Source: a virus (taxonomy: Duplodnaviria; Caudoviricetes). From it: a DNA stretch of 56,760 nucleotides. Location: positions 1-56,760 of IMG/VR virus record IMGVR_UViG_3300022221_000010. The stretch is one strand, 5' to 3'. The position numbers and the translations under genes are program-made. Shown piece after piece: positions 1,402-18,063 of the stretch. The notes under the pieces were generated by a model. That model had not been told where the DNA came from. It saw nothing but the letters and a program-made list of their open reading frames with translations, and ran no database searches. Numbering within the stretch: the first letter of the stretch is position 1; the number at the start of each line of letters is the position of its first letter.

Positions 1402-1844
1402 AACGTAGAGATTTTTTAAAAATAACAGGTGGTGTCGCCGCTGGAACTTTAACTACATTTGGCTCTTCCGCTGAAACGGGAAGATCAAAGGTTCGGGAAT
1501 TTGTTGTTTCAAAGGATAGACATTCTCGTGCTGTTGTGGAAAATAACCACACCACTTCGAAACGGAATATTAATAAAACAAAACCGTTTGTTTTATTTGT
1601 CAAGATTGAAGAGAAGATATGGAAAGTTAAACCGAGTGGAGGTGGAATCTATGGTGGTCTACCATCTCCAATGATTTATCATGCTAATTGGGTGTATGAT
1701 TTTGAAAATGATGAATTTATTAAGGACCGCAATCTTCTTGGTGCTTCGGATATTAAGTATTTATCTTTTGGTGATGTACCTTGGATGCCGAAAGAAATAC
1801 GAAGTAAGTATACATTTAATTTTAAACCTAAATTGACCGCGTAG
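1398..1844 (+). CDS. protein with twin-arginine (Tat) signal peptide
   Basis: N-terminus MKRRDFLKITGGVAAG matches RRxFLK; stop codon lies inside tRNA-Cys. Confidence 0.65.
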   Translation: MKRRDFLKITGGVAAGTLTTFGSSAETGRSKVREFVVSKDRHSRAVVENNHTTSKRNINKTKPFVLFVKIEEKIWKVKPSGGGIYGGLPSPMIYHANWVYDFENDEFIKDRNLLGASDIKYLSFGDVPWMPKEIRSKYTFNFKPKLTA

Positions 1845-1908
1845 CAAAGTGGTAATGCGCCGGATTGCAAATCCGGTATCGTCGGTTCAAATCCGGTCGC
1901 GGTCTCCA
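1835..1908 (+). tRNA. tRNA-Cys(GCA)
   Basis: GACCGCG/CGCGGTC acceptor, CCGGA-TTGCAAA-TCCGG, U73, CCA. Confidence 0.95.
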
Positions 1909-1913
1909 TTATT

Positions 1914-2096
1914 ATGAATTTATCTGAAGCAGAATCTAATTTAAAAGAAAGTCAAGAATTAATGGCGTCTAAATATTGTCCATTGATGTCTGGCCGTTGT
2001 ATTGATCAATGTATCCATTATTATTCGGGTAAGTTGGTCGGTCCAATTGAAGATCAATATCGAATTATAAATTCCAAATGTAAACTCTGGAAATAA
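1914..2096 (+). CDS. small Cys-containing hypothetical protein
   Basis: 60-aa ORF between tRNA genes. Confidence 0.55.
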   Translation: MNLSEAESNLKESQELMASKYCPLMSGRCIDQCIHYYSGKLVGPIEDQYRIINSKCKLWK

Positions 2097-2108
2097 ATTC
2101 TTGAAACG

Positions 2109-2116
2109 TATAAATA
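2109..2116 (+). promoter_or_regulatory. T4-type late promoter
   Basis: TATAAATA upstream of the tRNA cluster at 2225-2547. Confidence 0.6.
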
Positions 2117-2224
2117 AATATGATATATTTTAAAAATGAAATATCAGCAAAAGAATTTGCTAAAATAAAATCGCATTATCGATTTATGACTATTAAAGGT
2201 CGATATGCAGTAAAAATAATTTAA

Positions 2225-2297
2225 CGCGGGTGGTCACAGTGACCAACCGAGGCTCATAACCTTGGATAGATCGGAGCGTTACCGATACCCGCTACCA
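2225..2297 (+). tRNA. tRNA-Met(CAT), initiator-like, atypical T loop
   Basis: C1:U72 mismatch, CGAGG-CTCATAA-CCTTG, T arm ATCGG-AGCGTTA-CCGAT, CCA. Confidence 0.75.
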
Positions 2298-2304
2298 AAT
2301 TTAT

Positions 2305-2381
2305 AGCGCATTAGCTCAGTTGGTTAGAGCACTCGGCTGATAACCGGGAGGTCAGTGATTCGAGTTCACTATGCGCTACCA
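2305..2381 (+). tRNA. tRNA-Ile(GAT)
   Basis: Canonical cloverleaf, loop CTGATAA, CCA. Confidence 0.95.
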
Positions 2382-2387
2382 AATTAT

Positions 2388-2470
2388 GCGCGACTGGTTA
2401 ATGCAAATTGGCACAGCTACTAGATTTAGAATCTAGACCTTTCTCGGTTCGAGTCCGAGGTTGCGTACCA
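2388..2470 (+). tRNA. tRNA-Leu(TAG), enlarged D region and short variable loop
   Basis: GCGCGAC/GTTGCGT, CTAGA-TTTAGAA-TCTAG, CTCGG-TTCGAGT-CCGAG, CCA. Confidence 0.8.
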
Positions 2471-2476
2471 AATTAT

Positions 2477-2547
2477 GTTGGAGTAGATCAGGGTATCAAG
2501 TCGGATTGTGACTCCGGCTCTGGGGTTCGAATCCCCGCTTCACCCCA
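2477..2547 (+). tRNA. tRNA-His(GTG), compact
   Basis: TCGGA-TTGTGAC-TCCGG anticodon arm, GGGG-TTCGAAT-CCCC, C73, CCA; small D arm. Confidence 0.75.
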
Positions 2548-2567
2548 ATTTGTGGGATATTTATATT

Positions 2568-2816
2568 ATGAAATTATTTCAAATTTATCAATCTAAACAT
2601 GATCAATGCTTCGCGAAAAGTGAATGGGATTGGATCACCGCATTTATTGTGAATGCCGAAGATGAGGATGAAGCTCGTTTGTTGTGTTCCGAACATCCTA
2701 TTGCAATTGATAAAATGAAAAATCCTGATTGCTATCTTAATACTGAATATTTCGCATGTCATGAACTAGACACAAATTCCTCATCCGTATTGTATTGTGA
2801 TGAGGATTCGATGTGA
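2568..2816 (+). CDS. hypothetical protein
   Basis: ATG after the tRNA-His 3' end (MKLFQIY...); overlaps the next start. Confidence 0.65.
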   Translation: MKLFQIYQSKHDQCFAKSEWDWITAFIVNAEDEDEARLLCSEHPIAIDKMKNPDCYLNTEYFACHELDTNSSSVLYCDEDSM

Positions 2817-3277
2817 AATACTATGCTGGTATTGGATCACGAATCACACCACAACCAATTCTTGATGAATTTAAACTAATTGCTGCGCAACTGGAAGAAA
2901 GAGGTTTTACCCTTCGTTCCGGTGGTGCTAATGGCGCAGATAAAGCATTTGAATACAGCACGAAGATCAAAGAGATATTCACACATTATAAATGTACTGA
3001 TGCCGCACTTGAGCACGCTTCTAAATTTCATCCAAATTGGAATGCTTGTTCATATATTGCGCAAAAATTGCATGGTAGAAATAGTATGATTATCTTAGGT
3101 GAAAATCTGGATAGTCCTGTGGATTTTGTTATCTGTTGGACAATGAATGGTTTAGAAAGGGGTGGTACTGGTCAAGCATTGCGGATCGCCAAATCATTGA
3201 ACATCGAAGTTTTAAATCGAGGATCAATGAGTCATACGGAATTGACAAATCGAATAGGTTTAATCAATTTAGTATAA
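2813..3277 (+). CDS. SLOG/DprA-like Rossmann-fold protein
   Basis: YAGIGSR, LRSGGANGAD, VICWT and GGTGQA motifs. Confidence 0.8.
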   Translation: MKYYAGIGSRITPQPILDEFKLIAAQLEERGFTLRSGGANGADKAFEYSTKIKEIFTHYKCTDAALEHASKFHPNWNACSYIAQKLHGRNSMIILGENLDSPVDFVICWTMNGLERGGTGQALRIAKSLNIEVLNRGSMSHTELTNRIGLINLV

Positions 3278-3289
3278 AAGAGGCAAGGT

Positions 3290-3787
3290 ATGTTTGAAAG
3301 TATATTAGTTTTTAGTACATTAGTTTTATCCTCGTGGTGGTTTTTCATAGCCGCATTTTTCATTATTTTATTTCTTGTTCACCTAGAGCGTGATTTTTTC
3401 AGCTTAGTGATGATCGGTCTTTTCATTATATCGACTAAAATATTATTCGGTTTAACAACTGAAACAGTATTATGGTCAGTATTCCTGTATATTCCTTTTG
3501 GTGTCGGGTGGGCATTGTTTAGATGGGATCGATTCTGTGCGGATATGATAACTAAAATTCAGGGAATTGAAAAGGTCAGAAAGCTTACTAAGGATGAGAT
3601 AATTGAGCGACTATCACCAACTGAGAACAAAAGTAAAATTGTTTACTGGATAACCATATGGCCATTTAGTTTACTTGAACATTTTCTAACCGATTTTATT
3701 GATATGATATTCGATTCTTTTAAAGGCGTATTTACTCGTATATCAAAAAAACACATTGCGGATATGAATAAAGACTATTGGTTATGA
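3290..3787 (+). CDS. integral membrane protein
   Basis: Several hydrophobic segments, GAGG RBS. Confidence 0.75.
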   Translation: MFESILVFSTLVLSSWWFFIAAFFIILFLVHLERDFFSLVMIGLFIISTKILFGLTTETVLWSVFLYIPFGVGWALFRWDRFCADMITKIQGIEKVRKLTKDEIIERLSPTENKSKIVYWITIWPFSLLEHFLTDFIDMIFDSFKGVFTRISKKHIADMNKDYWL

Positions 3788-3801
3788 TAGTTGGGTATTG
3801 C

Positions 3802-3830
3802 TTGACGTTTCATAGCTAAACCGATATAAT
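3802..3830 (+). promoter_or_regulatory. sigma70-like early promoter
   Basis: TTGACG-N17-TATAAT. Confidence 0.75.
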
Positions 3831-3862
3831 CCTCTTTCAACTATGGAAGAGGATTTTTTGTT

Positions 3863-4099
3863 ATGACTACATTGACATGTGATTTTAAAGAGTTTAAGAA
3901 ATCAGCACACAGCTATTTAGCGAAGTTATCAAATGCAAATGACGAAGAAGCTGATAATGGATTTAAATGTTTGACCTTGCTTTATATTGGTTTGAAACCT
4001 GAATCTGATATTGAAGTTGGTTTAGCCGCTCGACTATTGGAAACTGCTGGTGAAAAGCTCACGAGACATTCTGCTGGCTTACCGCTCTGGGATGCATAA
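3863..4099 (+). CDS. hypothetical protein
   Basis: GAGG RBS, downstream of promoter. Confidence 0.7.
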   Translation: MTTLTCDFKEFKKSAHSYLAKLSNANDEEADNGFKCLTLLYIGLKPESDIEVGLAARLLETAGEKLTRHSAGLPLWDA

Positions 4100-4134
4100 T
4101 TATTGATTATTATAAAAAGATAAATACATAATTG

Positions 4135-4142
4135 TATAAATA
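4135..4142 (+). promoter_or_regulatory. T4-type late promoter
   Basis: TATAAATA upstream of tRNA-Gly. Confidence 0.6.
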
Positions 4143-4171
4143 AATAAATTACTGTATAATTATTATTTTAC

Positions 4172-4253
4172 GCGGGTGAGTCAACAAGGTGTTGAATCTG
4201 CCTTCCAAGCAGACGCGAAAGCATGGCGAGTTCGATTCTCGTCACCCGCTCCA
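4172..4253 (+). tRNA. tRNA-Gly(TCC) with extended variable arm
   Basis: GCGGGTG/CACCCGC, U73, TCTGC-CTTCCAA-GCAGA, variable region with GC-GAAA-GC, CCA. Confidence 0.85.
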
Positions 4254-4273
4254 AATAAATAATATGGTGATTT

Positions 4274-4531
4274 ATGAAAAAGACTTTTTTAGTAATTTCT
4301 TTGCTGGTTGTGTCGTTTACTGCACAAGCTGGAATATTTAGTGCACTGCGTGATTCCTCACGAGAGCAAATTCCAACTCAGGTCTTGAGTCTGGAAGCGG
4401 ATGGTAAAAACTTTCGTATGTATATTTATCCAGCACCATACAATTCGGATTATATTTGTGTGATGATTGCAGGAACGCAGAAAGGTGGTAATTCGTGCTA
4501 CCCTCGCAAAGATAAAGAATTGTTACAATAG
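4274..4531 (+). CDS. small exported protein
   Basis: Sec signal peptide ending AQA, two Cys. Confidence 0.7.
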   Translation: MKKTFLVISLLVVSFTAQAGIFSALRDSSREQIPTQVLSLEADGKNFRMYIYPAPYNSDYICVMIAGTQKGGNSCYPRKDKELLQ

Positions 4532-4538
4532 TTTCAAT

Positions 4539-4615
4539 CGGTCAGTATTCTAGTCTGGCAAGTTACCTCGTTTGGGGCGAGGACATCGGGAGTTCGAATC
4601 TCCCCTGACCGACCA
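4539..4615 (+). tRNA. tRNA-Pro(TGG)
   Basis: CGGTCAG/CTGACCG, CCTCG-TTTGGGG-CGAGG, CCA. Confidence 0.9.
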
Positions 4616-4621
4616 ATTTAT

Positions 4622-4698
4622 AGTCCTATAGCCAAGCGGTCCAAGGCATCAGGTTTTGAACCTGACATTCGAAGGTTCGAATCCTTCTGGGACTTCCA
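4622..4698 (+). tRNA. tRNA-Gln(TTG)
   Basis: AGTCCTA/TGGGACT, TCAGG-TTTTGAA-CCTGA, CCA. Confidence 0.9.
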
Positions 4699-4701
4699 TT
4701 C

Positions 4702-4728
4702 AAAAGCCAGCTTCGTGCTGGCTTTTTT
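4702..4728 (+). terminator. rho-independent terminator
   Basis: AAAAGCCAGC-TTCGT-GCTGGCTTTTTT. Confidence 0.85.
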
Positions 4729-4740
4729 CGTTATTAAAGC

Positions 4741-4769
4741 TTGCAATAATATATTTAATCTGATATATT
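4741..4769 (+). promoter_or_regulatory. sigma70-like early promoter
   Basis: TTGCAA-N17-TATATT. Confidence 0.6.
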
Positions 4770-4799
4770 CTCTATATAAATTAATTGGAGAAGATTATA

Positions 4800-5123
4800 A
4801 TGAACACAGAAAGAAGAGGTATTGGGGCATACGTTTACCGAAGCGGTTTAGGTGATTGCACTAATGGTGGAATTTCCGGAAAGGCTGATCGAGTTATTGC
4901 AACAGGTGACATGATCGAACGTGGAAATGTCCTTCCATCCGAATCCGATGATCCTCATTTCATTATTGTTGAAGAATATCCAACAGGTAAACCAATGCTT
5001 CGTGCATATCCAATCGATCTGTATAAATCGGATAAATGGGTGATGTTTGGTGGTAATTTTCTTTACAGTAGTGATAGTCGGTTTCCTGATATCCCAGTCA
5101 AGATTTTTGATCGAGTGGAATAA
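4800..5123 (+). CDS. hypothetical protein
   Basis: GGAG RBS; DCTNGGIS and MFGGNFLYSSDSRF motifs typical of a phage family. Confidence 0.75.
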   Translation: MNTERRGIGAYVYRSGLGDCTNGGISGKADRVIATGDMIERGNVLPSESDDPHFIIVEEYPTGKPMLRAYPIDLYKSDKWVMFGGNFLYSSDSRFPDIPVKIFDRVE

Positions 5124-5126
5124 ATT

Positions 5127-5300
5127 ATGAAAACTATGGTAGCCGTACCAAAAAGTATGCTGGATGAATTAGAGCATTCTCGTGTCAAACTATATGAACT
5201 GTTTCCAGATATTACTAATGATGAAGTAATTCGTTTGACTAATATTACAGCTATTATGTGGAAACTCGCCAATACAAATTGGAAGGAGATAGAATCATGA
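5127..5300 (+). CDS. small hypothetical protein (57 aa, below ORF-track cutoff)
   Basis: MKTMVAVPK...WKEIES* fills the gap and overlaps the next ATG. Confidence 0.55.
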   Translation: MKTMVAVPKSMLDELEHSRVKLYELFPDITNDEVIRLTNITAIMWKLANTNWKEIES

Positions 5301-5551
5301 GTTTAAAATTACTGGCCAGTGAAGTTGCGGATTTAACGAATCGTAATCATCACACAGATTCATTAATCTTGATTTCTAAGTATCTATTTAAAGATGAAAT
5401 CACGGAAGAGTTAGAGCGTATACGGTCTGAGTCTGATACTTGCATCTCTCCAGATAATTACAACCGACGATATGAGTTGTATTCTGAATTAATGAAAATC
5501 GGTAAAAAGAAGTTTGGATGTGGTTTTGACATAATATATAATTCCCTATAG
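5297..5551 (+). CDS. hypothetical protein
   Basis: AGGAG RBS before MSLKLL. Confidence 0.65.
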   Translation: MSLKLLASEVADLTNRNHHTDSLILISKYLFKDEITEELERIRSESDTCISPDNYNRRYELYSELMKIGKKKFGCGFDIIYNSL

Positions 5552-5612
5552 GGATTGACATTTATTGTCATTTGCGTATAATCCACAAAATCCAAAAAAT
5601 AGGAAATTAATT

Positions 5613-6389
5613 ATGTCCCAAACTTCTACAGCATCACCAAATGTTGGATTTGATTCAATTTTGAATTCTAACCAACAAACCATGCACAACATCGAATCGT
5701 ATCGTAATAAAAAAATTACGAATACACCGAGAAATTTATTATTCGGTGGTGTGGTTATTGGCACATCATTGTTATTCATAATGTTCGCCGCGCAAATCAT
5801 CACTGGCATGTTCGCAATTATTCTAACGGGTGTGACTGGCATTTCTGCATTCTATTTAACCCGACTGCTGAAAAACATGGACCCATACATTCGCCAGAAA
5901 TTCAAAAATGAAGCATTGAAGAAAATGATGAATGAGGCAAAAGACAATGCCATTTATCAACTTGACAATCAGGTCATTAAAAATTCTGAACGTCTGAAAC
6001 AAGCACGCGAAGCTCGAAATAAAATGGGTGCTTTAGTTCAACAACTCAAATCAAGTATTAATCCGGAAAATAAAGGAAAGCCGATTTATGAACGGAAACT
6101 TGAAATGTTGAAAAAGGTTGAAACGGCATATGAAGTGATGGGTGCTAATTTGGAAGCAGGTGCCGAAGCAAATAAAAAATTCAAGGTCAAGGTGAATGAA
6201 TATCGTGACATGAATCGTTTTGCTGATATTGCTGGTGAAGCTATGGCTCTGCTCGGTGCGTCCGGTCACAAAGAACTGGAAGAAATGCTTTCACTGGAAT
6301 CGTTCAACGAAATTGATTCCAATTTTAACAGTGCGATTATTTCAATTGAAAATAGCGCACGTGACATGCAACTTGATCAGGAAATGTAA
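5613..6389 (+). CDS. membrane-anchored coiled-coil protein (PspA-like architecture)
   Basis: Two TM helices followed by a long helical/coiled-coil region; AGGA RBS. Confidence 0.7.
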   Translation: MSQTSTASPNVGFDSILNSNQQTMHNIESYRNKKITNTPRNLLFGGVVIGTSLLFIMFAAQIITGMFAIILTGVTGISAFYLTRLLKNMDPYIRQKFKNEALKKMMNEAKDNAIYQLDNQVIKNSERLKQAREARNKMGALVQQLKSSINPENKGKPIYERKLEMLKKVETAYEVMGANLEAGAEANKKFKVKVNEYRDMNRFADIAGEAMALLGASGHKELEEMLSLESFNEIDSNFNSAIISIENSARDMQLDQEM

Positions 6390-6392
6390 ACA

Positions 6393-6542
6393 ATGTCTGA
6401 ATCTAAATCAACGAAAGTTATGCGAATTATTTCTTATATGCTTTTTGCACTCGCTATCGGTGCTGGAGTGATAGGGATTATGTCTGGTGATAGTGACTCT
6501 GCTAAAAAGTCACCTTCATCTTCTTCAAAACCAATGTTTTAA
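6393..6542 (+). CDS. small single-TM protein (49 aa)
   Basis: MSESKSTKVMRIISYMLFALAIGAGVIGIMSG...KPMF*, read by eye between two operon genes. Confidence 0.65.
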   Translation: MSESKSTKVMRIISYMLFALAIGAGVIGIMSGDSDSAKKSPSSSSKPMF

Positions 6543-6554
6543 ACGAGGTATATT

Positions 6555-7496
6555 ATGAAAAAACTTTTACTATTCATTGCGGTTACCATTTTTAGTTCGA
6601 TGGCGATTGCAGCAAAACCAATTAAATTTGGTACGGGTGGTCCAACTGGAAATTATTTTTCTATGGCCAATGACATTGATCATTATTGCTCAGATCAATT
6701 AGTTGATCGCTCTCTGGAAATTCTTAACACGAAAGGATCAATTGATAATTTACGTGGTATGGGATCAAAGAAATATAGTATCGGATGGGTTCAGGAAGAT
6801 GTGTTACATTATTACGCACGTCAAGACCCAACTAAGGTCAATAAGAATCGATTGAAAATTATTGCCGGTGGTCATGCTGAAACTGTTCATATGTTGATTC
6901 CTAAAGACTACAATCCAACTCCAGCTAGTAGTGGATGGATGGATAAAGTCGGTGGCATGTTTTCATCGAAAGAACAATTACCGCTTGATCTGAATTTATT
7001 GAAAGGTCAAACGATTGGTTCTTATGGTGGTAGTCTGGTGAGTGCTAAAGCTTTGTCTATGTTTATGGAATTGGATTTGACTATTGTCGAAATTCCCGAA
7101 GAACGTCGCGGTAAAGCTGGTGATGTGCCGATTCTTTTAGTTGGTGGTCAACCATATGCGCCGGTTGAACAGTATCTTGCAACTAACAATTATGTTTTGG
7201 TCTCAATTGACGCACGCACATTATCAACTAAAGCACCATTTTATATGGAATCGACTGCGAATTACGAAGTTAATGGTGAAATCGTTTCAATCCCGACTAT
7301 TGGTGTTCGTGCTTTGATGATTGGTAAATCGTTTCGTAAAGAGTCGAAAAACGCTAACATGATTGCATTGGCTGGTTGTATTGATAGTAATCTGGAAGAT
7401 TTAGCAGATGACTCAGATACAAATCCAAACTGGGCATCGGTAGTCGAGTTGGATGAAGCTGGTCAAACTAACTGGTCTTATTTCCCCTTGAAATAA
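6555..7496 (+). CDS. TAXI-family (TRAP-associated) solute-binding protein
   Basis: Signal peptide, GTGGPTGNYF, TKGSIDNL and VQEDV motifs. Confidence 0.75.
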   Translation: MKKLLLFIAVTIFSSMAIAAKPIKFGTGGPTGNYFSMANDIDHYCSDQLVDRSLEILNTKGSIDNLRGMGSKKYSIGWVQEDVLHYYARQDPTKVNKNRLKIIAGGHAETVHMLIPKDYNPTPASSGWMDKVGGMFSSKEQLPLDLNLLKGQTIGSYGGSLVSAKALSMFMELDLTIVEIPEERRGKAGDVPILLVGGQPYAPVEQYLATNNYVLVSIDARTLSTKAPFYMESTANYEVNGEIVSIPTIGVRALMIGKSFRKESKNANMIALAGCIDSNLEDLADDSDTNPNWASVVELDEAGQTNWSYFPLK

Positions 7497-7520
7497 AATC
7501 TAGTTGAATAAGTAGTAATT

Positions 7521-7557
7521 AAAGGCAATATATTTAATCGATATATTGCCTTTTTTA
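7521..7557 (+). terminator. rho-independent terminator
   Basis: AAAGGCAATATAT...ATATATTGCCTTTTTT. Confidence 0.8.
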
Positions 7558-7603
7558 TTGGATGATGTAAAATAAATAAAATATCAAAAGAAATGGGCTA
7601 GAT

Positions 7604-7807
7604 ATGAAAAACGGTGAATTATACGTTAAATTAAGTAAGGTGATTAAATCTTGCGAAACCTTCGATCAATTAACTACGGCAATTCATTACGCGCAATTAA
7701 TTCAAAAAAGATTGCGTATAACAGATGATTGGGTTGGTAAAATAAAAATATCGAAAGCCGTGGAAAAAGATATAACCGAACATATGAACTTTCTTAGACG
7801 AAATTAG
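7604..7807 (+). CDS. hypothetical protein
   Basis: 67-aa ORF. Confidence 0.6.
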   Translation: MKNGELYVKLSKVIKSCETFDQLTTAIHYAQLIQKRLRITDDWVGKIKISKAVEKDITEHMNFLRRN

Positions 7808-7962
7808 TGGAGAATGATAATGAGTATGAATGAGGCTACCACACTTTCAGGTTTATCATGGGCTGCAATATTTATCGTTTGTATGTTGCTATTGATACCA
7901 GTTAAAGATACCGAATGTGGTTCGGATTTAGAAACAGATTTAACAACAATTAAGAGGTAGGT

Positions 7963-8169
7963 ATGTTTGATTTAATCGATGATGTAATAGATGAATTAGA
8001 TGAATTAGTCGATGATACTCTGGATGCCGGTCAATCTTTATTGAACGGTGAAATAATGTCAGAAAGTAAAGTGATTAAATTATTTGAAACGGGTATGACT
8101 ATATACGCGATTTCTGATATGACTGGTATTTCTGTGGAATTGATACGAAAAATTGTGACTGAAGATTAG
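7963..8169 (+). CDS. small acidic protein with C-terminal HTH-like motif
   Basis: GMTIYAISDMTGISVELIRKIV resembles a helix-turn-helix. Confidence 0.6.
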   Translation: MFDLIDDVIDELDELVDDTLDAGQSLLNGEIMSESKVIKLFETGMTIYAISDMTGISVELIRKIVTED

Positions 8170-8640
8170 TCACAATTTATTCAGATCGGATATTTTCATA
8201 TTGTAACTATCACAATGAAATGTAAAATTATTGCTAGTGTCTTTATCTCCCTTTTTATGAAAAACACTTTCCGTAAAATATTGATTTTTTATTTTAAATC
8301 CTAAAATCCATCCGACACTTAAATCTTTTAATATCCTAACGAATATATAAGCATCACATTTTTGGGATGTGTTATATCCAGCAATACTGCATTCATAATA
8401 AGATTTTGGTTGACTGGTACATTGTTTAGTTTTAACATCAACGTGAAATCCTCCCATGGTTAAATCATAATCATAAGTATTGGTACTTTCTCCGTTGTAT
8501 TTATCTCGAACAATAATTTCTCCAAGGAATCCGATTACATTACCTTTACCTTTGGTTATGCTATTATTTAAAACTCCCATTTCACTTGCCATCAATCTAG
8601 CTTCTTGACGTTGTTTTTCGGTTATCATAATCTTTTTCAT
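8170..8640 (-). CDS. putative PD-(D/E)xK nuclease-like protein
   Basis: G-LGE, YDYDL and VDVKTK motifs; lone minus-strand gene in this region. Confidence 0.6.
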   Translation of the reverse strand: MKKIMITEKQRQEARLMASEMGVLNNSITKGKGNVIGFLGEIIVRDKYNGESTNTYDYDLTMGGFHVDVKTKQCTSQPKSYYECSIAGYNTSQKCDAYIFVRILKDLSVGWILGFKIKNQYFTESVFHKKGDKDTSNNFTFHCDSYNMKISDLNKL

Positions 8641-8752
8641 ATTGAAATATTCCTAAGAAATATTTAATATTTATGTGACCAATATAATTGTTTTTTTATT
8701 TAAGATATGCTATATTGTATATATTAAATAATACTCCTAAATATGAGGAACT

Positions 8753-9214
8753 ATGAAAGCTTCAGTTAAAAGAAATCCTAATAAATTATTAGGCAAGGCC
8801 ATTAAAATTGCCGCTGAAGCTTTCGAAAATAAAACTGATCTGGGTGGAGTACCCTATATCATGCATTGTATTTTCGTCATGCGTGAAATGCCGAAAGATG
8901 ATATTGAATTAAATATTATCGCAGTGTTACACGATTTGATTGAAGATACCGATTGGGAAATTTCTGATCTAGCTGCATATGGGTACTCTGACCGAGTGTT
9001 AGACGCGTTAATTTTATTGACGCACGATGATGAATCCTATGATGATTACATTAAAAATATTGCAACCAATCCAGATGCCACGAAAGTTAAAATGGCCGAT
9101 CTTAGACATAATTCCGACATTCACAGAATGAAGGGATTGAGGGAAAAGGATTTTGCAAGGTTGGAAAAGTATCATAGATCATATGATTATCTGAGAAGTA
9201 AGCTTAATGCATAG
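8753..9214 (+). CDS. HD-domain small alarmone ((p)ppGpp) hydrolase-like protein
   Basis: PYIMH, AVLHDLIEDT and VKMADLRHN motifs of the SpoT/Mesh1 HD family. Confidence 0.85.
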   Translation: MKASVKRNPNKLLGKAIKIAAEAFENKTDLGGVPYIMHCIFVMREMPKDDIELNIIAVLHDLIEDTDWEISDLAAYGYSDRVLDALILLTHDDESYDDYIKNIATNPDATKVKMADLRHNSDIHRMKGLREKDFARLEKYHRSYDYLRSKLNA

Positions 9215-9329
9215 GGTGGTTCGTGATCAGTGGAAAGAAGTTTATAATGATTTGATTATGAATGCTTATGCTGAATATCTTATTTTTAAGCAAGAACGAT
9301 TATTATACATATATAGTAAAACAAAATGA

Positions 9330-9337
9330 TATAAATA
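9330..9337 (+). promoter_or_regulatory. T4-type late promoter
   Basis: TATAAATA just upstream of tRNA-Leu. Confidence 0.6.
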
Positions 9338-9344
9338 TATAAAC

Positions 9345-9428
9345 GGGACTGTGGTGGAAAGGTATACGCACCAGACTTAAAATCTGGCGACTTCGGTCAT
9401 GTGGGTTCGAGTCCCACCAGTCCCACCA
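9345..9428 (+). tRNA. tRNA-Leu(TAA)
   Basis: Canonical class II cloverleaf, loop CTTAAAA, variable arm GAC-TTCG-GTC, CCA. Confidence 0.95.
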
Positions 9429-9435
9429 AATTAAT

Positions 9436-9516
9436 ACCCTCGTAATCCCCAGCGCTACGAACGTTGAGTAAGATAACTGGATGAAAATGCAGGTTCGAAT
9501 CCTGTCGAGGGTGCCA
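9436..9516 (+). tRNA. tRNA-Arg(ACG)-like RNA lacking a conventional D arm
   Basis: ACCCTCG/CGAGGGT-G-CCA, CAGCG-CTACGAA-CGTTG only 7 nt after the acceptor stem, 22-nt extra region, GCAGG-TTCGAAT-CCTGT. Confidence 0.7.
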
Positions 9517-9524
9517 ATTTTAAT

Positions 9525-9806
9525 ATGAAAATCACTATTATAATAATATTAATTATGTTATCATTCACTGCAAATGGTGAGGATATTCATAAAGGTGTTT
9601 CCGGATATTTTCTCATATTTGATGGAAATCAATGGTATGGGATTAAGAAGTTAAATCCAAATGATGTTTTTCCTAATTACAAAATTGTATTAAAAATTCC
9701 TGTTATATATGATACGTCAAGGCAGGAATATTTACAGGATAAATTGGATATTGAAGATCGTGAAATACCCAATCATATTCAAGTAAATAATGATTATTTA
9801 AATTAG
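9525..9806 (+). CDS. small exported protein
   Basis: Signal peptide MKITIIIILIMLSFTANG; stop overlaps the tRNA start by 1 nt. Confidence 0.65.
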   Translation: MKITIIIILIMLSFTANGEDIHKGVSGYFLIFDGNQWYGIKKLNPNDVFPNYKIVLKIPVIYDTSRQEYLQDKLDIEDREIPNHIQVNNDYLN

Positions 9807-9882
9807 GGTCAGTAGCTTAGCGGTCTAAAGCAGCGCGCTCATAACGCGTTGATCGATGGTTCGAATCCATCCTGACCCACCA
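9806..9882 (+). tRNA. tRNA with CAT anticodon (elongator Met or Ile2)
   Basis: GGGTCAG/CTGACCC, GCGCG-CTCATAA-CGCGT, CCA. Confidence 0.9.
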
Positions 9883-9937
9883 TCTAAAATAAATATCGTG
9901 ACATCTCCAATAAAATTGCAATTTAAATAAAAAGTAT

Positions 9938-9965
9938 TTGACATTAATATTTAAATATGCATAAT
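9938..9965 (+). promoter_or_regulatory. sigma70-like promoter for the ncRNA array
   Basis: TTGACA-N16-CATAAT ending 8 nt before unit 1. Confidence 0.65.
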
Positions 9966-9972
9966 ACCAATC

Positions 9973-10117
9973 ACGCACCGGCTATAGAAAAACATCCTTC
10001 TATTTGATACCGGAGCCGCAAACGGGGGTTCGAATCCTTCCCTCTCGATACTAACGAGGGGTAGTTTAATGGTAGAACAGCGGCATTACTAAACAGTTTT
10101 TCAACTTTCCAGTGCGT
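9973..10117 (+). ncRNA. structured RNA unit 1 with circularly permuted tRNA-like domain (Y RNA/YrlA-like topology)
   Basis: Outer stem ACGCACCGG/CCAGTGCGT, inner stem GAAAAAC/GTTTTTC, then GCCGC/GCGGC closing T arm, capped acceptor hairpin and D arm; followed by poly-T. Confidence 0.85.
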
Positions 10118-10132
10118 TTTATTTTTTTTTTG

Positions 10133-10205
10133 AATAGAGGCTATAATCAAGCATCCTTCTAACTAATACTTTGAATGTGCTCTAGCTTGATAACTTTCCT
10201 CTTTT
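10133..10205 (+). ncRNA. structured RNA unit 2 of tandem array
   Basis: AGAGG-CTATA-ATCAAGC-ATCCTTC...GCTTGAT-AACTTT-CCTCT then poly-T. Confidence 0.8.
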
Positions 10206-10215
10206 TTATTTGTAT

Positions 10216-10302
10216 TACTGGCCATAAATAGTCATCCTTCATCGATGCTGCGAAGCATCAGCCATTTAAGCTGACTAAAAAGAGACTATTAACTCTCCAG
10301 TA
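10216..10302 (+). ncRNA. structured RNA unit 3 of tandem array
   Basis: TACTGG-CCATA-AATAGTC-ATCCTTC, two small hairpins, GACTATT-AACTCT-CCAGTA then poly-T. Confidence 0.8.
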
Positions 10303-10312
10303 TTTTTTACGG

Positions 10313-12364
10313 ATGTATATTATGAATAATTACGAAATCGCGATTCAATATCAAAATTCCATTCTGATCGAAAATTCTTCTGATTTTCTCAAGGATCAGA
10401 ATACATTATTAGTGGCGTCATTTAATGCGGAATTAATGAATCTCGGATATGTTCTATCTGAAGATGCGTTTACGTATTTATCCGGTATGCCGAAATCAAA
10501 CATTCTCGATACCATTAATAATACTATTTCTTATTTGAAAAAAGGTCTGGGTGCGGATGTCGTTCATAAACCTATGTATCAGGGTTTCCCTAAAGAGGTA
10601 ATGGACAAATCATATCTGGAATTGTACATGAATGCTATCGTCCATTATTGGACGCGTGGTCATTGGATGCCAGCATCTGAGAATTTACCTCGTGAGTATT
10701 CATTCGAAGAGGTTGAATTTAGACAATTGCGGTTTATGTTTCCAAGTGAATTGTTTGGAATTTTGGGTACTTTACTAGCATCAAATGATTCTTTGACCTC
10801 ACATGCGCGTGAAGCGATTGAATTTATGATACGTGATAACGATGTTATGTCGGGTGCCATATATAATCTACATATTCCCTTTAAAGAAAATATCGCAATC
10901 GTTGGTGCCTATGCGATCAATCAGAATAAGAGCATTTTTCCTTTTGTGAAAACTGCAACTGATATCTTGCGTGTTTTAGCACATTATTCGGGTGGTGATG
11001 CTTCACTGTCTGAGAATACCAAATTTAAATCTTTGCCACGTCCAGCTCGAAAGGATGTTGTTAAATGTCTTGAACGATTTATTAATGATGATGATATCGC
11101 ACGTTATTCAAATGTGTGGATTCGTGTATTCCATATGTTACACATTGGTGAATATAAATTTGCTGTCAAGAGTAATAAGATAGCGAAGAAAATTCGTGGT
11201 AATAAAAAATTGATCACGATTCGTTCAGAGTATGAAAAATTAGTTTCGGATGGTCAATTATCTGAAGCGTTAAAGCTGTTGTCCAAAAGACCGGGGGAAT
11301 CTATTCGTGAAATCGGTAGACTCGAACGTTTGGGATTAACAATTGATCTGGATTTTTTCCGTGAAATATTGCAAGGTGTTTCCACCAAAGTAATTTTACA
11401 GTTTATGGGATACTTGCGAATGCGCTCATCTGATCGTGATTCGAGAATTGTACTTCCCAAAGGATCGGTTGGGAAATCAATTAAGATATCCGGATTGGGT
11501 GCAATGGAATCTTGGATGACTCTACATGATAAATGTATGATAGAAATTCAATCCCGTTCCAATGTGGAAAATAAATTAAAACCAGTATGGATCGATGACC
11601 GTTTAAAAAGATGTCCAATACCATCCGGTATGCGAAGTGCATCTGAGTCGTTGAAGAATCTAACGCGTGGTACTCGTGTTCCTTTTGGTGATAAAGAGGT
11701 TTTACGCTTCTTTATATATTGGGTTGGTCAGGATATCGATCTAAGTGTACAATTTTTTAATGCTGATATGTTACTAGTTGGTCAGAATTCATATACCGCA
11801 ATGAGAAATAGTTATTCATGCCATTCGGGTGATATCACTCGCGCACCGAATGGTGCATCTGAATTTATCGATGTTCGTATCGATGATGCAATACTTCAAG
11901 GTGTTCGATATGTGTTATCGACTGTGTATGTATTCAGTGGTCCTACATTCAAAGAACATAAAGAAGCATTTTTCGGATGGATGACTAGGAATGGTATGGG
12001 TGAAGGTGGTGATATATATCAACCAAAAACTGTTGATCAAAAGATTGATCTTCGTGCGGAATCCAAAGTTGCTGTTCCTGCATTATTTGATTTAAAAACT
12101 CGTGAGATGGTTTGGATTGATTTGAATGCGCAAGTCGTTGGTGAATACAATAATGTGGAATCTACGAGAGTCGAGACTAGTGATCTTTTAAAATCATTTG
12201 TCGATCTATCCGAAACTAAATTATCGTTATACGGCTTGTTTGCGATGAATCATCCGAATCAGGTTGAGGATAAAGAAGATGCTGAATTCACCTTTGGATT
12301 AGATCAATCATGCGATATCACTCCATATGATGTCGAATTAATTCAATCTGAATATTTTAAATAA
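10313..12364 (+). CDS. large helical protein with C-terminal TerD-like domain
   Basis: C-terminal QDIDLS...HSGDITRAPNGASEFIDV is TerD-like; N-terminal PMYQGFPKEV, TATDILR and KRPGE motifs; start may be 10322. Confidence 0.75.
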   Translation: MYIMNNYEIAIQYQNSILIENSSDFLKDQNTLLVASFNAELMNLGYVLSEDAFTYLSGMPKSNILDTINNTISYLKKGLGADVVHKPMYQGFPKEVMDKSYLELYMNAIVHYWTRGHWMPASENLPREYSFEEVEFRQLRFMFPSELFGILGTLLASNDSLTSHAREAIEFMIRDNDVMSGAIYNLHIPFKENIAIVGAYAINQNKSIFPFVKTATDILRVLAHYSGGDASLSENTKFKSLPRPARKDVVKCLERFINDDDIARYSNVWIRVFHMLHIGEYKFAVKSNKIAKKIRGNKKLITIRSEYEKLVSDGQLSEALKLLSKRPGESIREIGRLERLGLTIDLDFFREILQGVSTKVILQFMGYLRMRSSDRDSRIVLPKGSVGKSIKISGLGAMESWMTLHDKCMIEIQSRSNVENKLKPVWIDDRLKRCPIPSGMRSASESLKNLTRGTRVPFGDKEVLRFFIYWVGQDIDLSVQFFNADMLLVGQNSYTAMRNSYSCHSGDITRAPNGASEFIDVRIDDAILQGVRYVLSTVYVFSGPTFKEHKEAFFGWMTRNGMGEGGDIYQPKTVDQKIDLRAESKVAVPALFDLKTREMVWIDLNAQVVGEYNNVESTRVETSDLLKSFVDLSETKLSLYGLFAMNHPNQVEDKEDAEFTFGLDQSCDITPYDVELIQSEYFK

Positions 12365-12380: not shown

Positions 12381-12626
12381 ATGCCTTTAATGAGAGCAAA
12401 AATGCGGGTAATTGCCATTCAACCATACGCGGATGGATCGGAACACCTGACTTTAGAAGCGGTTTGTAAAAATGAACCTTATGATGAAAATGGATCGGAC
12501 GAAGATAATACGTTTGCGAAATTTACACCATCTGCTAATTTAACGATGTTAGTTAATAATCCTAATTTAAAGGAAGTTATTAATGTTGACGATACTTTTT
12601 ACGTAGATTTCACAAGGGTTGATTGA
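12381..12626 (+). CDS. hypothetical protein
   Basis: RAKMRV...EDNTFAKFTPSA...FYVDFT, a familiar small phage protein pattern. Confidence 0.7.
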   Translation: MPLMRAKMRVIAIQPYADGSEHLTLEAVCKNEPYDENGSDEDNTFAKFTPSANLTMLVNNPNLKEVINVDDTFYVDFTRVD

Positions 12627-12702: not shown

Positions 12703-13716
12703 ATGAACAAAAAATTCGACACTGCTGTTGTCATAGGCAGATTCCAAATACCACATAGTGGTCACCGCAAAGTATTCGACGAAGCTGCCAAATTAGCAGA
12801 TCGAATAGTTGTTATAATTGGTTCGGTTGGACAACCATCAACTCCAAAAAATCCTTTCTCATTCGAAGAAAGAAAGTCGATGCTTAGATCATTGCTCCCC
12901 GATATTCCATGCGATATTTTACCTGTTCGCGATCAAACCTATAATATCCAGAACTGGATTGTTGACGTAAACAACAAAGTTAATTCAACTGATCCGAAAG
13001 GCTGGACTGATTATCCACCAAAAAGAATTTTAGTCGGTCACCACAAAGATGAAAGTTCATTTTATCTGGATATGTTTCCACGGTGGAAATTTCATGAAGT
13101 TGAATCTGAAATGGAAATTCATGCAACTGATATCAGACAGGCTTTATTTGAAGGTAAATCATTTGATGATTTTGAATTTCTGAATAGTCACGTGAAATTT
13201 TATCTTCAAGGTTGGACTCTTTCAGATGATTTTCGAAGACTACAAGAAGAATATCAGTGGTTAAAGGAATATAAAGAAAAGTGGGGTTCAGGACCATTTG
13301 TTACCGCTGATGCAGTCGTTATTCAGAGTGGTCACATATTATTAGTTCAGCGTGGTGATAGACCAGCTATTGGCCAGTGGGCATTGCCGGGAGGATTCGT
13401 AAATCCTAAAGAAACAGTACGGCAAGCTGCATTGCGTGAATTGAAAGAAGAAACACGTATAAAGGTTCAACCAATCATTTTGGATCGAAATATTAAACGC
13501 TCCAAAGTTTTCGATGCGCCTAATCGATCACAGCGTGGACGTATTTTCACACATGCATTTTTGATTGAATTGGACGCAACAACATTGCCTCGGATACAAG
13601 CCAATGATGACGCCAAGGATGCAAGGTGGTTTCCATTAAATGAAGTTTTCTCGATGGGTGAAGTAATGTTTGAAGATCACCTTGATATCATTCTTAACAT
13701 GACTGGGGGTATGTGA
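12703..13716 (+). CDS. nadM: bifunctional NMN adenylyltransferase / ADP-ribose pyrophosphatase (NadM-Nudix, NatV-like)
   Basis: GRFQIPHSGH motif, KNPFSFEER, Nudix box GGFVNPKETVRQAALRELKEET. Confidence 0.95.
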   Translation: MNKKFDTAVVIGRFQIPHSGHRKVFDEAAKLADRIVVIIGSVGQPSTPKNPFSFEERKSMLRSLLPDIPCDILPVRDQTYNIQNWIVDVNNKVNSTDPKGWTDYPPKRILVGHHKDESSFYLDMFPRWKFHEVESEMEIHATDIRQALFEGKSFDDFEFLNSHVKFYLQGWTLSDDFRRLQEEYQWLKEYKEKWGSGPFVTADAVVIQSGHILLVQRGDRPAIGQWALPGGFVNPKETVRQAALRELKEETRIKVQPIILDRNIKRSKVFDAPNRSQRGRIFTHAFLIELDATTLPRIQANDDAKDARWFPLNEVFSMGEVMFEDHLDIILNMTGGM

Positions 13717-14115: not shown

Positions 14116-15474
14116 ATGAAAAATATCATACTCAATACAGACTCGTATAAGCTCTCTCACTGGCCACAGTATCCCAAGGGTACTACTGGTGTCTTTTCTT
14201 ACGCCGAAGCGCGTGGTGGCGCATATGATGAGACTGTGGTGTTCAATATCCAGCCTTATATCAAAGAACTGGCCAAAGGTGTGACCATGGCGGATATCGA
14301 TGAAGCTGAAAAGATTGTACTGGCTCACGGTGAACCATTCAATCGCGAAGGTTGGGAATACATTGTTAATGAACTAGGTGGTAAACTTCCTGTTCGAATC
14401 AAAGCGGTGCCGGAAGGTAATGTAGTTCCGATTAGTAATGCTTTGGTTACTATCGAGAACACTGACCCCAATTGTTATTGGCTAACTTCATATCTCGAAA
14501 CCGGATTGCTGCGTGCCATATGGTATGGATCGACCGTTGCCACAATTAGTTGGAATATTAAACAACTGATTATGAAATATTTGAATGAAACCGGAACACC
14601 GGAAGATATCTATTTCAAATTGCACGATTTTGGTGCTCGTGGTGTATCATCATTCGAATCATCTGAAATTGGTGGTGCTGCACATCTGGTGAATTTCATG
14701 GGTACTGATACTGTGTCTGCATTACAATTCATCATGCGGAATTACAATACCGATGAAGTTGCTGGCTTTTCGATTCCAGCATCCGAACACTCGACTATGA
14801 TGTATGGTGGCCGCGAAAACGAAACCAAAGCCTATCGAAATATGCTCGAAGTGTATGGACCAAATGGAATATTTGCTTGCGTATCAGATTCATATGACAT
14901 ATATAATGCCGTTGAAAATATCTGGGGTGGAGAACTTCGACAAGAAGTGATCGATTCTGGTGCGACTGTTGTTATCCGTCCTGACTCTGGTGATCCTGTT
15001 GCCGTAAATCGAAGATTGCTGGATATTCTCGATGATAAATTTGGATCAGATGTTAATGATAAAGGATTTAAGGTTTTAAAACACGTTCGTCTGATTCAAG
15101 GTGATGGTATTAATTATAGCACTATCGATGCGATTCTATCCATGGCAGTCAGTAAGGGATTCTCTGCTGACAATTTCGCATTTGGAATGGGTGGTGCATT
15201 ACTGCAAGGGATGGATCGTGATACTCAACAGTGGGCGATGAAATGTTCCGCGATGGAAATCGATGGTGAGTGGATTAATGTATCGAAAGACCCTGTTACC
15301 GATCAAGGTAAAAAATCGAAGCCGGGTCGATTAGCTCTCGTGAAGAAAAATGATACATATTTTACTGTAAATGAATCAACTGATCTTTCGAATATTCTCG
15401 AAACTGTGTTTGAAAATGGTGAAGTGGTTAAGGAATATACATTTGCCGAAGTGCGTGCTAATAGCGAAAAATAA
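14116..15474 (+). CDS. nadV: nicotinamide phosphoribosyltransferase
   Basis: TDSYKLSH, LHDFGARG, SIPASEHS, VSDSYD, IRPDSGDP, IQGDG. Confidence 0.97.
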   Translation: MKNIILNTDSYKLSHWPQYPKGTTGVFSYAEARGGAYDETVVFNIQPYIKELAKGVTMADIDEAEKIVLAHGEPFNREGWEYIVNELGGKLPVRIKAVPEGNVVPISNALVTIENTDPNCYWLTSYLETGLLRAIWYGSTVATISWNIKQLIMKYLNETGTPEDIYFKLHDFGARGVSSFESSEIGGAAHLVNFMGTDTVSALQFIMRNYNTDEVAGFSIPASEHSTMMYGGRENETKAYRNMLEVYGPNGIFACVSDSYDIYNAVENIWGGELRQEVIDSGATVVIRPDSGDPVAVNRRLLDILDDKFGSDVNDKGFKVLKHVRLIQGDGINYSTIDAILSMAVSKGFSADNFAFGMGGALLQGMDRDTQQWAMKCSAMEIDGEWINVSKDPVTDQGKKSKPGRLALVKKNDTYFTVNESTDLSNILETVFENGEVVKEYTFAEVRANSEK

Positions 15475-17384: not shown

Positions 17385-17389
17385 CCGTT

Positions 17390-17397
17390 TATAAATA
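17390..17397 (+). promoter_or_regulatory. T4-type late promoter
   Basis: TATAAATA upstream of tmRNA. Confidence 0.6.
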
Positions 17398-17416
17398 GTA
17401 ATGTAAAATAGTTTTA

Positions 17417-17786
17417 TCATTGTATGAAGCGGATGATAGGTTGATAGACGCGGGTTCGAATCCCGCCATCTCCACCAGAAACGTTTGACTCATGTCAAAT
17501 GATCGAAAGATGCACTTATGCACGAGTGCTGCCTAGCCTTTCTAGATGGCGAAAAATGTACAGTAAATGTGCATCAGGGTACAGGGTTCGAATGTTTCTG
17601 ATGGGGATGACTTGGAATCGATGTCGATGCGAAAATATGTGGACAATGTATGTAGATTCATATAAAAAATCAAAAAAACAATAAATGCAAATGATGCACT
17701 TTATGACGGAGATTTCGCACTAGCTGCGTAATTGAAATCTGGGGGTTTGAGACTTCGGTCTGGTGTTCCTTATTACCCAAACACCA
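17417..17786 (+). ncRNA. ssrA: circularly permuted (two-piece) tmRNA
   Basis: Acceptor piece ...GCGGG-TTCGAAT-CCCGC-CATCTCC-A-CCA ends at 17477; GGGGATG starts at 17603 (G3:U70 pair); tag ANDALYDGDFALAA* at 17687-17731 after ATAAAT; outer limits approximate. Confidence 0.9.
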
Positions 17787-17820
17787 TCTAATAATTATTA
17801 ATAATATAGGTGTGGGCTAA

Positions 17821-18063
17821 ATGACAAAGAAGTTTAATCAGCAAGAATTAGAATTTTTAACTGAAAGTACAACCTTATCACTTCACAATCTAAGTAATAC
17901 CTTTAAATTAATGTATGATGAAGATTCACCTGAATCTTATAAAAAAATTCTTTATGGCATAACACTCATGTTGGATGATAAGAATTTTTGTCAAAATATG
18001 ATAGATGTAGCTGAAAGAAGCCAAACTTACTCAGAGGAAATTATTTCGCCGGTAAGACATTAA
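17821..18063 (+). CDS. hypothetical protein
   Basis: 80-aa ORF coupled to the next gene. Confidence 0.6.
   Translation: MTKKFNQQELEFLTESTTLSLHNLSNTFKLMYDEDSPESYKKILYGITLMLDDKNFCQNMIDVAERSQTYSEEIISPVRH

Follow-up and report, generated by a model that had tools for sequence, protein, structure and literature searches.

The DNA analysed here, hereafter referred to as the window, is a viral record of 56,760 bases (IMG/VR record IMGVR_UViG_3300022221_000010; Duplodnaviria, Caudoviricetes), a fragment estimated to be about 30% complete. The window is rich in tRNA genes, with 11 tRNAs and a permuted tmRNA identified using ARAGORN. An array of three tandem paralogous RNA units, which have one scaffold in common (referred to as the handle) and carry three different inserts, starts 90 nt past the tRNA-Met gene and lies directly upstream of the gene for a 680-aa protein (P0001), such that unit 3 ends 12 nt before the open frame at 10313 and 21 nt before position 10322. 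The insert of unit 1, at 10015-10084, is a permuted tRNA-like module, with tRNA-Met 133 nt upstream and the 680-aa open reading frame (ORF) 230 nt downstream of it. The coordinates of these and other features are provided in Table 1.

An earlier note on this DNA had described a circularly permuted tRNA mimic at this place, and the order and coordinates of its elements were recovered from the sequence exactly as claimed. Starting from the 3' strand of an anticodon-like (AC-like) stem, the module continues through a variable loop, the T arm, an acceptor stem closed by a loop, U8 A9, the D arm and A26 to the 5' strand of the AC-like stem. All 21 of the 21 expected pairs were formed when the module was examined with a structural parser, for which it was the sole hit in the window on both strands. 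In 200 dinucleotide shuffles of the window, also searched on both strands, there were no hits with 21 pairs, 5 with 20 pairs, and 46 with 19 pairs. The elbow nucleotides are complete (U8, A14, G18 G19, T54 T55 C56, A58, G53-C61, and the T loop TTCGAAT), and the role of G18 G19, T54 T55 C56, A58, and G53-C61 in building the elbow is well established for tRNA. As the earlier note had stated, no anticodon loop is encoded, the AC-like stem opening instead into linkers that join it to scaffold helix P2, and the loop ATACTAA that closes the acceptor stem contains no CCA. The contiguous cloverleaf, 7-nt anticodon loop, and free acceptor ends of a canonical tRNA are thus lacking, and no tRNA was called at 10015-10084 by either ARAGORN or the Rfam tRNA model. 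An unconstrained minimum free energy (MFE) fold of 9975-10132 returned the permuted cloverleaf.

Relatives of the module were searched for in the window and 88 phage or viral loci (89 sources, 508 kb). A covariance model of the tRNA-like module (R2) was built from five relatives, with the window left out, and the window element was matched by this model at 40.2 bits (E=3.6e-12). Across the 89 sources the parser identified 41 permuted cloverleaves scoring at least 19, and the 40 that were clear of ARAGORN tRNAs were spread over 29 loci and the window. A CCUUC motif was present within 60 nt upstream of all 40 of these modules, and the 3' motif accompanied 39 of them; the single parser hit that overlapped a tRNA was without the 5' motif. 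In an alignment of the 40 embedded modules (39 distinct) that was fitted to the model (A10), 96.5% of cells were paired as opposed to 37-52% in slid controls, and the pairing signal is therefore specific. Double changes were found at 18 of the 21 pairs and in all four helices, with 240 double-change cells in A10 compared with 63 in shuffles. A10 covered 27 of the 89 sources at a threshold of 1e-11, with loci L049, L073, and L022 and duplicate loci left out. Junctions between tandem tRNA genes (L049, L022, and L073) are also scored by R2 and were set apart by their overlap with ARAGORN tRNAs. A MAFFT alignment of whole tRNA-bearing units (A4), in which the acceptor, D, and AC helices were mis-registered (51-71% paired), was rejected and replaced by A10. 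At bacterial loci, 18 of 19 R2 hits (E<=1e-6) lay behind a GGCUA...CCUUC motif. None of the 11 tRNAs of the window resembles both halves of the module, and the likeness to them is limited to generic loops. Judged by its sequence and that of its relatives, the module is a genuine and selected tRNA mimic, competent to adopt an L-shape.

The three units of the window have the same layout, in which P1 is followed in turn by an internal loop, P2 (7 bp, covarying), AUCCUUC(UA), the insert, P2', AAYUYUCC, and P1'. P1 ends in GG:CC, the internal loop is asymmetric (CUAWN / AAYUUU), and P2 is closed by an invariant C-G pair. P2 is fully compensatory across the units (GAAAAAC/GTTTTTC, ATCAAGC/GCTTGAT, and AATAGTC/GACTATT), and P1 also differs (AGAGG/CCTCT in unit 2 and ACTGG/CCAGT in unit 3). 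The consensus across loci is NNNGGCUA-N2-[7 nt]-C-AUCCUUCUA-insert-G-[7 nt']-AAUUUCC-NNN. A covariance model of the handle (R1) was built from 29 short units, and its seed alignment (A3) included units 2 and 3 of the window and not unit 1. The earlier claim that the module lies inside a larger RNA, unit 1, is borne out by the handle fold and by the R1 match to 9977-10113, and the likely partner protein adjoins it. In the window, R1 matched the three units only, apart from one further match on the minus strand (E=0.84), and no Rfam family matched the handle units at E<=1.

Table 1. Features of the handle RNA array, the adjoining gene, and their surroundings in the window
Feature	Position	Strand	Sequence, evidence or remark
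Scaffold RNA unit 1, with tRNA-like insert	9975-10115	+	MFE fold; R1 match 9977-10113, 36.7 bits, E=6.7e-7 in 508 kb
Unit 1 P1	9975-9981 with 10109-10115	+	
Unit 1 5' internal loop	9982-9986	+	CUAUA
Unit 1 P2	9987-9993 with 10096-10102	+	GAAAAAC with GUUUUUC
Unit 1 single-stranded segment	9994-10002	+	AUCCUUCUA
Permuted tRNA-like module	10015-10084	+	R2 40.2 bits, E=3.6e-12; Rfam YrlA 20.5 bits; elements in the rows that follow
AC-like stem, 3' strand	10015-10019	+	GCCGC
Variable loop	10020-10023	+	AAAC
T arm	10024-10028 / 10029-10035 / 10036-10040	+	GGGGG / TTCGAAT / CCTTC; two G-U pairs
Acceptor hairpin, 7 bp	10041-10047 / loop 10048-10054 / 10055-10061	+	CCTCTCG / ATACTAA / CGAGGGG
U8 A9	10062-10063	+	TA
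D arm	10064-10067 / 10068-10074 / 10075-10078	+	GTTT / AATGGTA / GAAC
A26	10079	+	A
AC-like stem, 5' strand	10080-10084	+	GCGGC
Unit 1 3' internal loop	10103-10108	+	AACUUU
T-rich run after unit 1 P1, possible 3' end	10117-10131	+	sequence; terminator scan without call
Scaffold RNA unit 2	10136-10202	+	R1 54.9 bits, E=4.1e-12; short unstructured insert, then T run
Unit 2 P1	10136-10140 with 10198-10202	+	
Unit 2 P2	10146-10152 with 10185-10191	+	
Scaffold RNA unit 3	10217-10301	+	R1 43.2 bits, E=8.9e-9; insert with two small hairpins, then T run
Unit 3 P1	10217-10221 with 10297-10301	+	
Unit 3 P2	10227-10233 with 10284-10290	+	
680-aa protein P0001, presumed partner of the handle RNAs	10322-12364 (frame open from 10313)	+	phrog_33734, E=5.6e-70
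Candidate sigma-70-like promoter	9938-9965	+	TTGACA-16-CATAAT; 11/12 consensus positions; predicted start ~9972, foot of unit 1 P1
11 tRNA genes (Val, Cys, Ile, Leu x2, His, Gly, Pro, Gln, Met, Arg)	43-9882 and 45389-45465		
Permuted (two-piece) tmRNA	17418-17731 (ARAGORN 17385-17822)		Rfam tmRNA_permuted 106.2 bits; tag peptide ANDALYDGDFALAA

The handle RNA forms a family that is located almost exclusively beside genes of the P0001 family in phages and bacteria. In published phages that encode the protein, an unannotated gap is present beside the gene, and tandem units of one consensus were read there and in the viral loci. A first, rigid unit detector missed most loci and was superseded by the covariance models. 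At E<=1, R1 gave 286 matches in the window and the 88 loci, of which 285 were on the strand of the gene. At E<=1e-3 there were 269 units, all on the gene strand, in 76 of the 89 sources (75 of the 88 loci and the window), with 1-8 units per source, 210 distinct sequences, and a median length of 76.5 nt. A further 131 units, 129 of them on the gene strand, were identified at the same threshold in 73 of 80 loci from bacterial genomes. For the 126 distinct bacterial units that were not among the seeds, aligned by fitting to the covariance model, 96.2% of cells were paired (42-50% in slid controls), and double changes occurred at 10 of the 12 pairs, with 570 double-change cells compared with 172 in shuffles. 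Five whole jumbo-phage records, together 2.25 Mb, yielded 10 R1 matches, and 9 of these lay within about 700 nt of the gene. When bacterial genomes of 6-7 Mb were searched, the single genome-wide R1 match lay in the locus of the gene in two of three; the third gave no R1 match among the 150 of 6831 candidates that were scored. R1 likewise had no match at E<=10 at seven canonical TROVE loci.

Several individual loci deserve mention. The two opposite-strand bacterial units (L114, 1783-1843, and L115, 1787-1845) are divergent and lie just upstream of the gene. The remaining jumbo-phage match (G002:C1:303481-303548, 34.9 bits) is separated by 144 kb from the gene for the protein, in a phage of 463 kb, and may be an orphan or may lie beside a second, undetected copy of the gene. 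The protein and handle RNAs also occur in the chromosomes of cultured bacteria (loci L089-L168), for example Priestia megaterium (L126/L140), Brevibacillus (L129-L149), and Aliikangiella (L093). Just downstream of the Priestia megaterium homologue, positions 4274-4376 of L126 gave a weak match to the Rfam family rli23 from Listeria (36.7 bits, cut-off 45).

A full tRNA-like insert was found in 17 of the 210 distinct R1 units, a count to be read with the knowledge that units with long inserts are under-detected by R1. A lone T-arm hairpin and several conserved hairpins are likewise found as inserts in more than one phage, which suggests that the recurring classes are orthologous cargo modules besides the tRNA mimic. 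Arrays contain up to 8 units, which are located downstream as well as upstream of the gene. Insert classes common to several phages can be seen in the arrays of L040, L052, L054, L055, L071, and L085 (at about 3600-4700), and comprise the lone T-arm hairpin (…GAUAGGUUCAACUCCUAUUG…), a type with CGCCRAUAGGCACUUGAUUUGGGAUUAAGA, and a type with …AACAAACUUUUAAUUUG….

The neighbouring protein was analysed by profile, structure, and fold comparisons. The phrog_33734 family to which P0001 was matched is of unknown function, and no Pfam family, TROVE included, was found at E<=1 for P0001 or for any of 35 homologues. The NCBIfam model NF041916 (MXAN_6230/SCO0854 family RING domain-containing protein) matched at E=1.2e-96 with 324.7 bits against a cut-off of 600, the best stretch covering profile positions 381-730 of 842; P0001 is thus homologous to NF041916 but is not the RING-bearing equivalog. 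An AlphaFold2 model, with a predicted local distance difference test score (pLDDT) of 86.6 and a predicted template modelling score (pTM) of 0.84, consists of a helical N-terminal region of about 440 aa, a TerD-fold beta-sandwich at about 445-605, and short C-terminal helices. Using Foldseek, the beta-sandwich was matched to the TerD structures 3ibz (E=9.6e-6) and 2kxt (E=3.3e-5). The N-terminal domain folded alone had no match in the PDB better than E=0.03, and its matches were generic ARM, PPR, and HEAT solenoids and not Ro60. A profile of the 35 homologues was compared with seven TROVE proteins and gave an hhalign probability of 0.08%. By the Pfam, hhalign, and fold comparisons, the partner is therefore not detectably Ro60. 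No TROVE gene (PF05731) was found in the window, which holds about 30% of the genome, nor elsewhere in five phage records and five bacterial genomes that carry the protein.

In the ESM Atlas, the N-terminal fold was found (TM 0.83-0.89) in Actinomycetota proteins of about 720-730 aa and in 994-aa Prok-RING_4 proteins. At least 170 relatives of P0001 were counted at E<=0.001 among 8000 candidates scored. Other scans gave 90 relatives in viral contigs, where they were detected with an alignment-based scan and a single-protein scan found none, and 342 in one-per-species bacterial and archaeal genomes. Some of the bacterial relatives have an extra prokaryotic RING domain (Prok-RING_4).

The fold and its covariation, the handle family, and its position beside genes of the P0001 family are seen directly in the sequences. 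That the selected tRNA mimic is carried as a variable insert of a handle RNA, that the protein binds the handle, and that the inserts serve as adaptor or cargo modules or as decoys is, taken as a whole, moderately probable in our estimate. Transcription would begin at the candidate promoter upstream of unit 1, and the T-rich run may mark a 3' end of the RNA; the region contains 3 promoter-like sites compared with a shuffle mean of 3.9, so the candidate is distinguished by its position only. The handle would be the binding site of the 680-aa protein, comparable to the Y RNA stem for Ro60, and the inserts would be interchangeable cargo or adaptor modules. The tRNA-like insert could bring to the protein factors that recognise the tRNA elbow or acceptor, such as tRNA processing, modification, and repair enzymes, exonucleases, and host tRNA-targeting nucleases. 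Alternatively, it could soak up such proteins while being itself neither charged nor cut in an anticodon loop. A decoy or tether function may reasonably be supposed, and the adaptor (tether) role is favoured over a pure decoy because several RNAs share one handle with different inserts. The decoy comes second, and the adaptor role is proposed by analogy with the Ro60-Y RNA-PNPase complex 'RYPER', in which Deinococcus Yrn1 and metazoan Y RNAs are described as tethers (PMC4201824, partial text). What the putative system would share with these tethers is the concept of a conserved protein-binding stem with a variable effector module; unlike RYPER, it includes a different protein family, and PNPase or another effector is seen only in the known system. 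A role in tRNA or RNA metabolism is supported because the module is located among tRNA and tmRNA genes and near nucleotidyltransferase genes (4 of 7 annotated phage loci).

Several points weigh against this interpretation. The R1 seeds were picked by a script that demands pairing, which makes the seed statistics partly circular, and both A10 and the alignment of 126 bacterial units lean towards the structure of the model to which they were fitted. Thirteen of the 89 sources, including L008 and L009, were without an R1 match; diverged units are visible by eye in four of the R1-negative sources (L004, L005, L007, and L086). The MFE energy of unit 1 is ordinary (z = -1.23, with 19 of 200 shuffles folding equally well or better), so the case stands on pattern and conservation and not on thermodynamics. 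A promoter-like site was found at unit 1 only, with none at units 2 and 3, and a terminator scan of the region returned no calls. No RNA-binding domain is recognised in P0001, TerD folds are known from stress proteins that bind Ca2+ and not from proteins that bind RNA, and that the handle RNA is the ligand of P0001 we infer from gene neighbourhood alone.

The earlier note had likened the module to YrlA-type bacterial Y RNAs. As regards topology this is upheld, since the order in which the elements are aligned by the Rfam YrlA model (RF02553) is likewise T arm, closed acceptor stem, D arm. YrlA too has a permuted tRNA-like domain, and its 'anticodon' stem continues into a terminal stem in which the 5' and 3' ends of the RNA are paired. 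Membership of the family did not follow: scoring with the YrlA covariance model, which the note had proposed as a check, gave a weak full-length alignment of unit 1 at 20.5 bits (E=0.073 for the 451 nt searched), far short of the gathering score of 69, no TROVE/Ro60 gene is a neighbour, and the GNCGAA motif is absent, with no CGAA in 9972-10014 and the only CGAA of unit 1 lying in the T loop. The 5' motif GNCGAAN0-1G of YrlA is described as a putative contact of Rsr (PMC4201824, partial text).

Further features are common to the two systems. As with YrlA and YrlB, there are at least two paralogous RNAs per locus, only some of which have the tRNA-like domain, and as with YrlA the gene for a large protein lies alongside on the same strand, frequently in phages and near tRNA or RNA-repair genes. 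In the Rfam consensus of YrlA the outer stem has 6 bp and the inner stem 7 bp, and the internal loop (5 nt/8 nt) contains AAAACUUG; in the handle RNA the outer stem has 5-6 bp and the inner stem 7 bp, and the internal loop (5/6 nt) has AACUUU. Unlike YrlA, the handle reads GGCUA...AUCCUUCUA...AAUUUCC, up to 8 units occur in an array, P2 is separated from the tRNA-like domain by linkers and a conserved single strand of 9 nt, and the protein has an unrelated helical domain and a TerD fold in place of TROVE/vWA.

These likenesses would be explained if the RNA were orthologous to YrlA and the neighbouring protein descended from Ro60, with a TROVE ring and a vWA domain so diverged that they are no longer recognised, which we regard as unlikely. 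The permuted order, the weak full-length RF02553 alignment, and the similar stem and loop geometry are in its favour, and partial YrlA matches were found beside homologous proteins in RpAliso (L004, 42.3 and 34.7 bits), RcXuper (L005, 40.7 bits), and Weasels2 (L007, 26.4 bits), whereas the GNCGAA motif is absent here and R1 is silent at the seven TROVE loci. A YrlA match beside a genuine TROVE gene (L174) was also below the cut-off at 33.5 bits, so a low score alone does not exclude YrlA membership; together with the alike handle geometries, this caveat means that both RNAs may have an ancient common origin. For the protein, human Ro60 (9nen) was ranked 19 in the full-length fold search (E=0.045, probability 0.63, rmsd 17), but the N-terminal domain matches generic solenoids only, the C-terminal domain is TerD and not vWA, and the Pfam and hhalign comparisons and the searches for a TROVE gene elsewhere in the same genomes were negative.

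The alternative of a two-piece tRNA-like RNA, in which the acceptor loop would be cut by RNase P and a 3' enzyme, CCA added, and the product possibly aminoacylated, is in our judgement distinctly unlikely. The module is located in tRNA/tmRNA regions, with the permuted tmRNA of the window 7 kb downstream, (tRNA) nucleotidyltransferase genes lie within 2.5 kb in the 4 annotated phage loci mentioned above, and RNase P cleavage and CCA addition are reported to be possible in vitro for M. smegmatis YrlA (PMC4201824, partial text). The acceptor loop begins with ACCA (discriminator and CCA) in 6 of the 40 embedded modules, but the loop varies among modules both in sequence and in length (3-17 nt), and that of the window has no CCA. 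Pair 3:70 is A-U and not the G-U that is the alanine identity pair of tmRNA. Decoding is impossible because there is no anticodon loop, and since only 17 of the 210 distinct R1 units have a tRNA-like insert, processing of the insert is not the general function of the family.

Comparison with known permuted RNAs bears on the same question. In common with permuted tmRNA (RF04321), the T arm and the 3' strand of the acceptor are encoded before its 5' strand; unlike it, the module has no tag reading frame, CCA, or G3-U70, and keeps a full D arm and an AC-like stem. The permuted tmRNA model had its sole match in the window at 17418-17731, the tRNA-like part of that tmRNA scored only 20.7 bits with R2, and beta_tmRNA scored 7.2 bits on unit 1, covering the T arm and acceptor only. 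In the red alga Cyanidioschyzon merolae, permuted tRNA genes have the 3' half first with the acceptor ends joined by a loop, and mature into normal tRNAs with an anticodon loop, whereas here that loop is replaced by the conserved scaffold.

That the element is a decaying tRNA remnant, a tandem tRNA junction, or a cis-acting leader with no function as a separate RNA is very improbable: tandem tRNA junctions do score with the permuted model and the element does lie between tRNA-Met and the ORF, but it overlaps no ARAGORN tRNA and has no close likeness to the 11 tRNAs of the window beyond generic loops, compensatory changes keep all four helices, the module is always inside the handle, and a leader cannot account for arrays of as many as 8 units or for their presence downstream of the gene.

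The reading preferred here, a handle RNA with a tRNA mimic as insert and the 680-aa protein as its presumed binder, would extend a design that has so far been tied to one protein, since Y RNAs with tRNA-like domains are associated with Ro60. The same RNA design, in which a paired-end handle carries a permuted tRNA mimic as cargo, is found again here with another protein family. This family is uncharacterised, and its members number in the hundreds in jumbo and large phages and in cultured bacteria such as Priestia, Brevibacillus, and Paenibacillus. Should the protein prove to bind the handle, a new class of ribonucleoprotein (RNP) would be defined. We see about even chances that large phages and many bacteria possess such a class, in which a helical and TerD-fold protein unrelated to Ro60 is combined with arrays of up to 8 'handle + plug-in' RNAs (tRNA mimic, lone T arm, conserved hairpins), which arose independently of the Ro60/Y RNA design or captured it, and which acts as a programmable adaptor bringing in tRNA-binding enzymes or host tRNA-targeting nucleases. 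Binding of the handle by the protein would also provide a first functional lead for the TerD-fold family and its RING-bearing bacterial relatives (NF041916), and would explain the conserved non-coding gaps beside the gene in Xoo-sp13, XacN1, RpAliso, RcXuper, WXIN, and Weasels2. It would also offer a tractable system in which to ask why uncharged tRNA mimics are made by phages and bacteria, whether to serve as adaptors in the processing or decay of RNA or to act as decoys against defence that targets tRNA. The covariance models of the handle and module could seed an Rfam family.

No description of the handle RNA or of a function for the protein was found in a search of openly accessible papers without their supplements, and the supplementary tables of a catalogue of viral structured RNAs (PMC10690425) may list such units. 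A survey of jumbo phages reports ROT/TROVE proteins with a tRNA-like partner and, in the portion available, mentions TerD only within Ter systems (PMC7824862). In Listeria phage CKA15, three very abundant unexplained RNAs are reported at up to 2 kb upstream of a gene for which HHpred gave Rsr as the best match (PMC12282133, partial text). The arrangement is reminiscent of the present one, but no Listeria phage was detected by tblastn with the homologue from Lactobacillus phage LpeD, and no sequence link was found.

Additional features of the neighbourhood were recorded. An 81-aa ORF 3' of the gene for the 680-aa protein (12381-12626) was considered as a conserved partner and rejected, as no tblastn relative was found in 176 loci. 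No family was assigned using PADLOC, and blastn of positions 9880-10330 against the phage collection gave zero matches. Genes for tmRNA are also present near the protein/RNA module in L001, L004, L005, L040, and L054. Downstream of the array, the window encodes an NAD salvage pair, consisting of a cytidylyltransferase-like and NUDIX fusion (12703-13716) and a nicotinamide phosphoribosyltransferase (14116-15474; Pfam NAPRTase, E=3.3e-59), which is typical of large T4-like phages.

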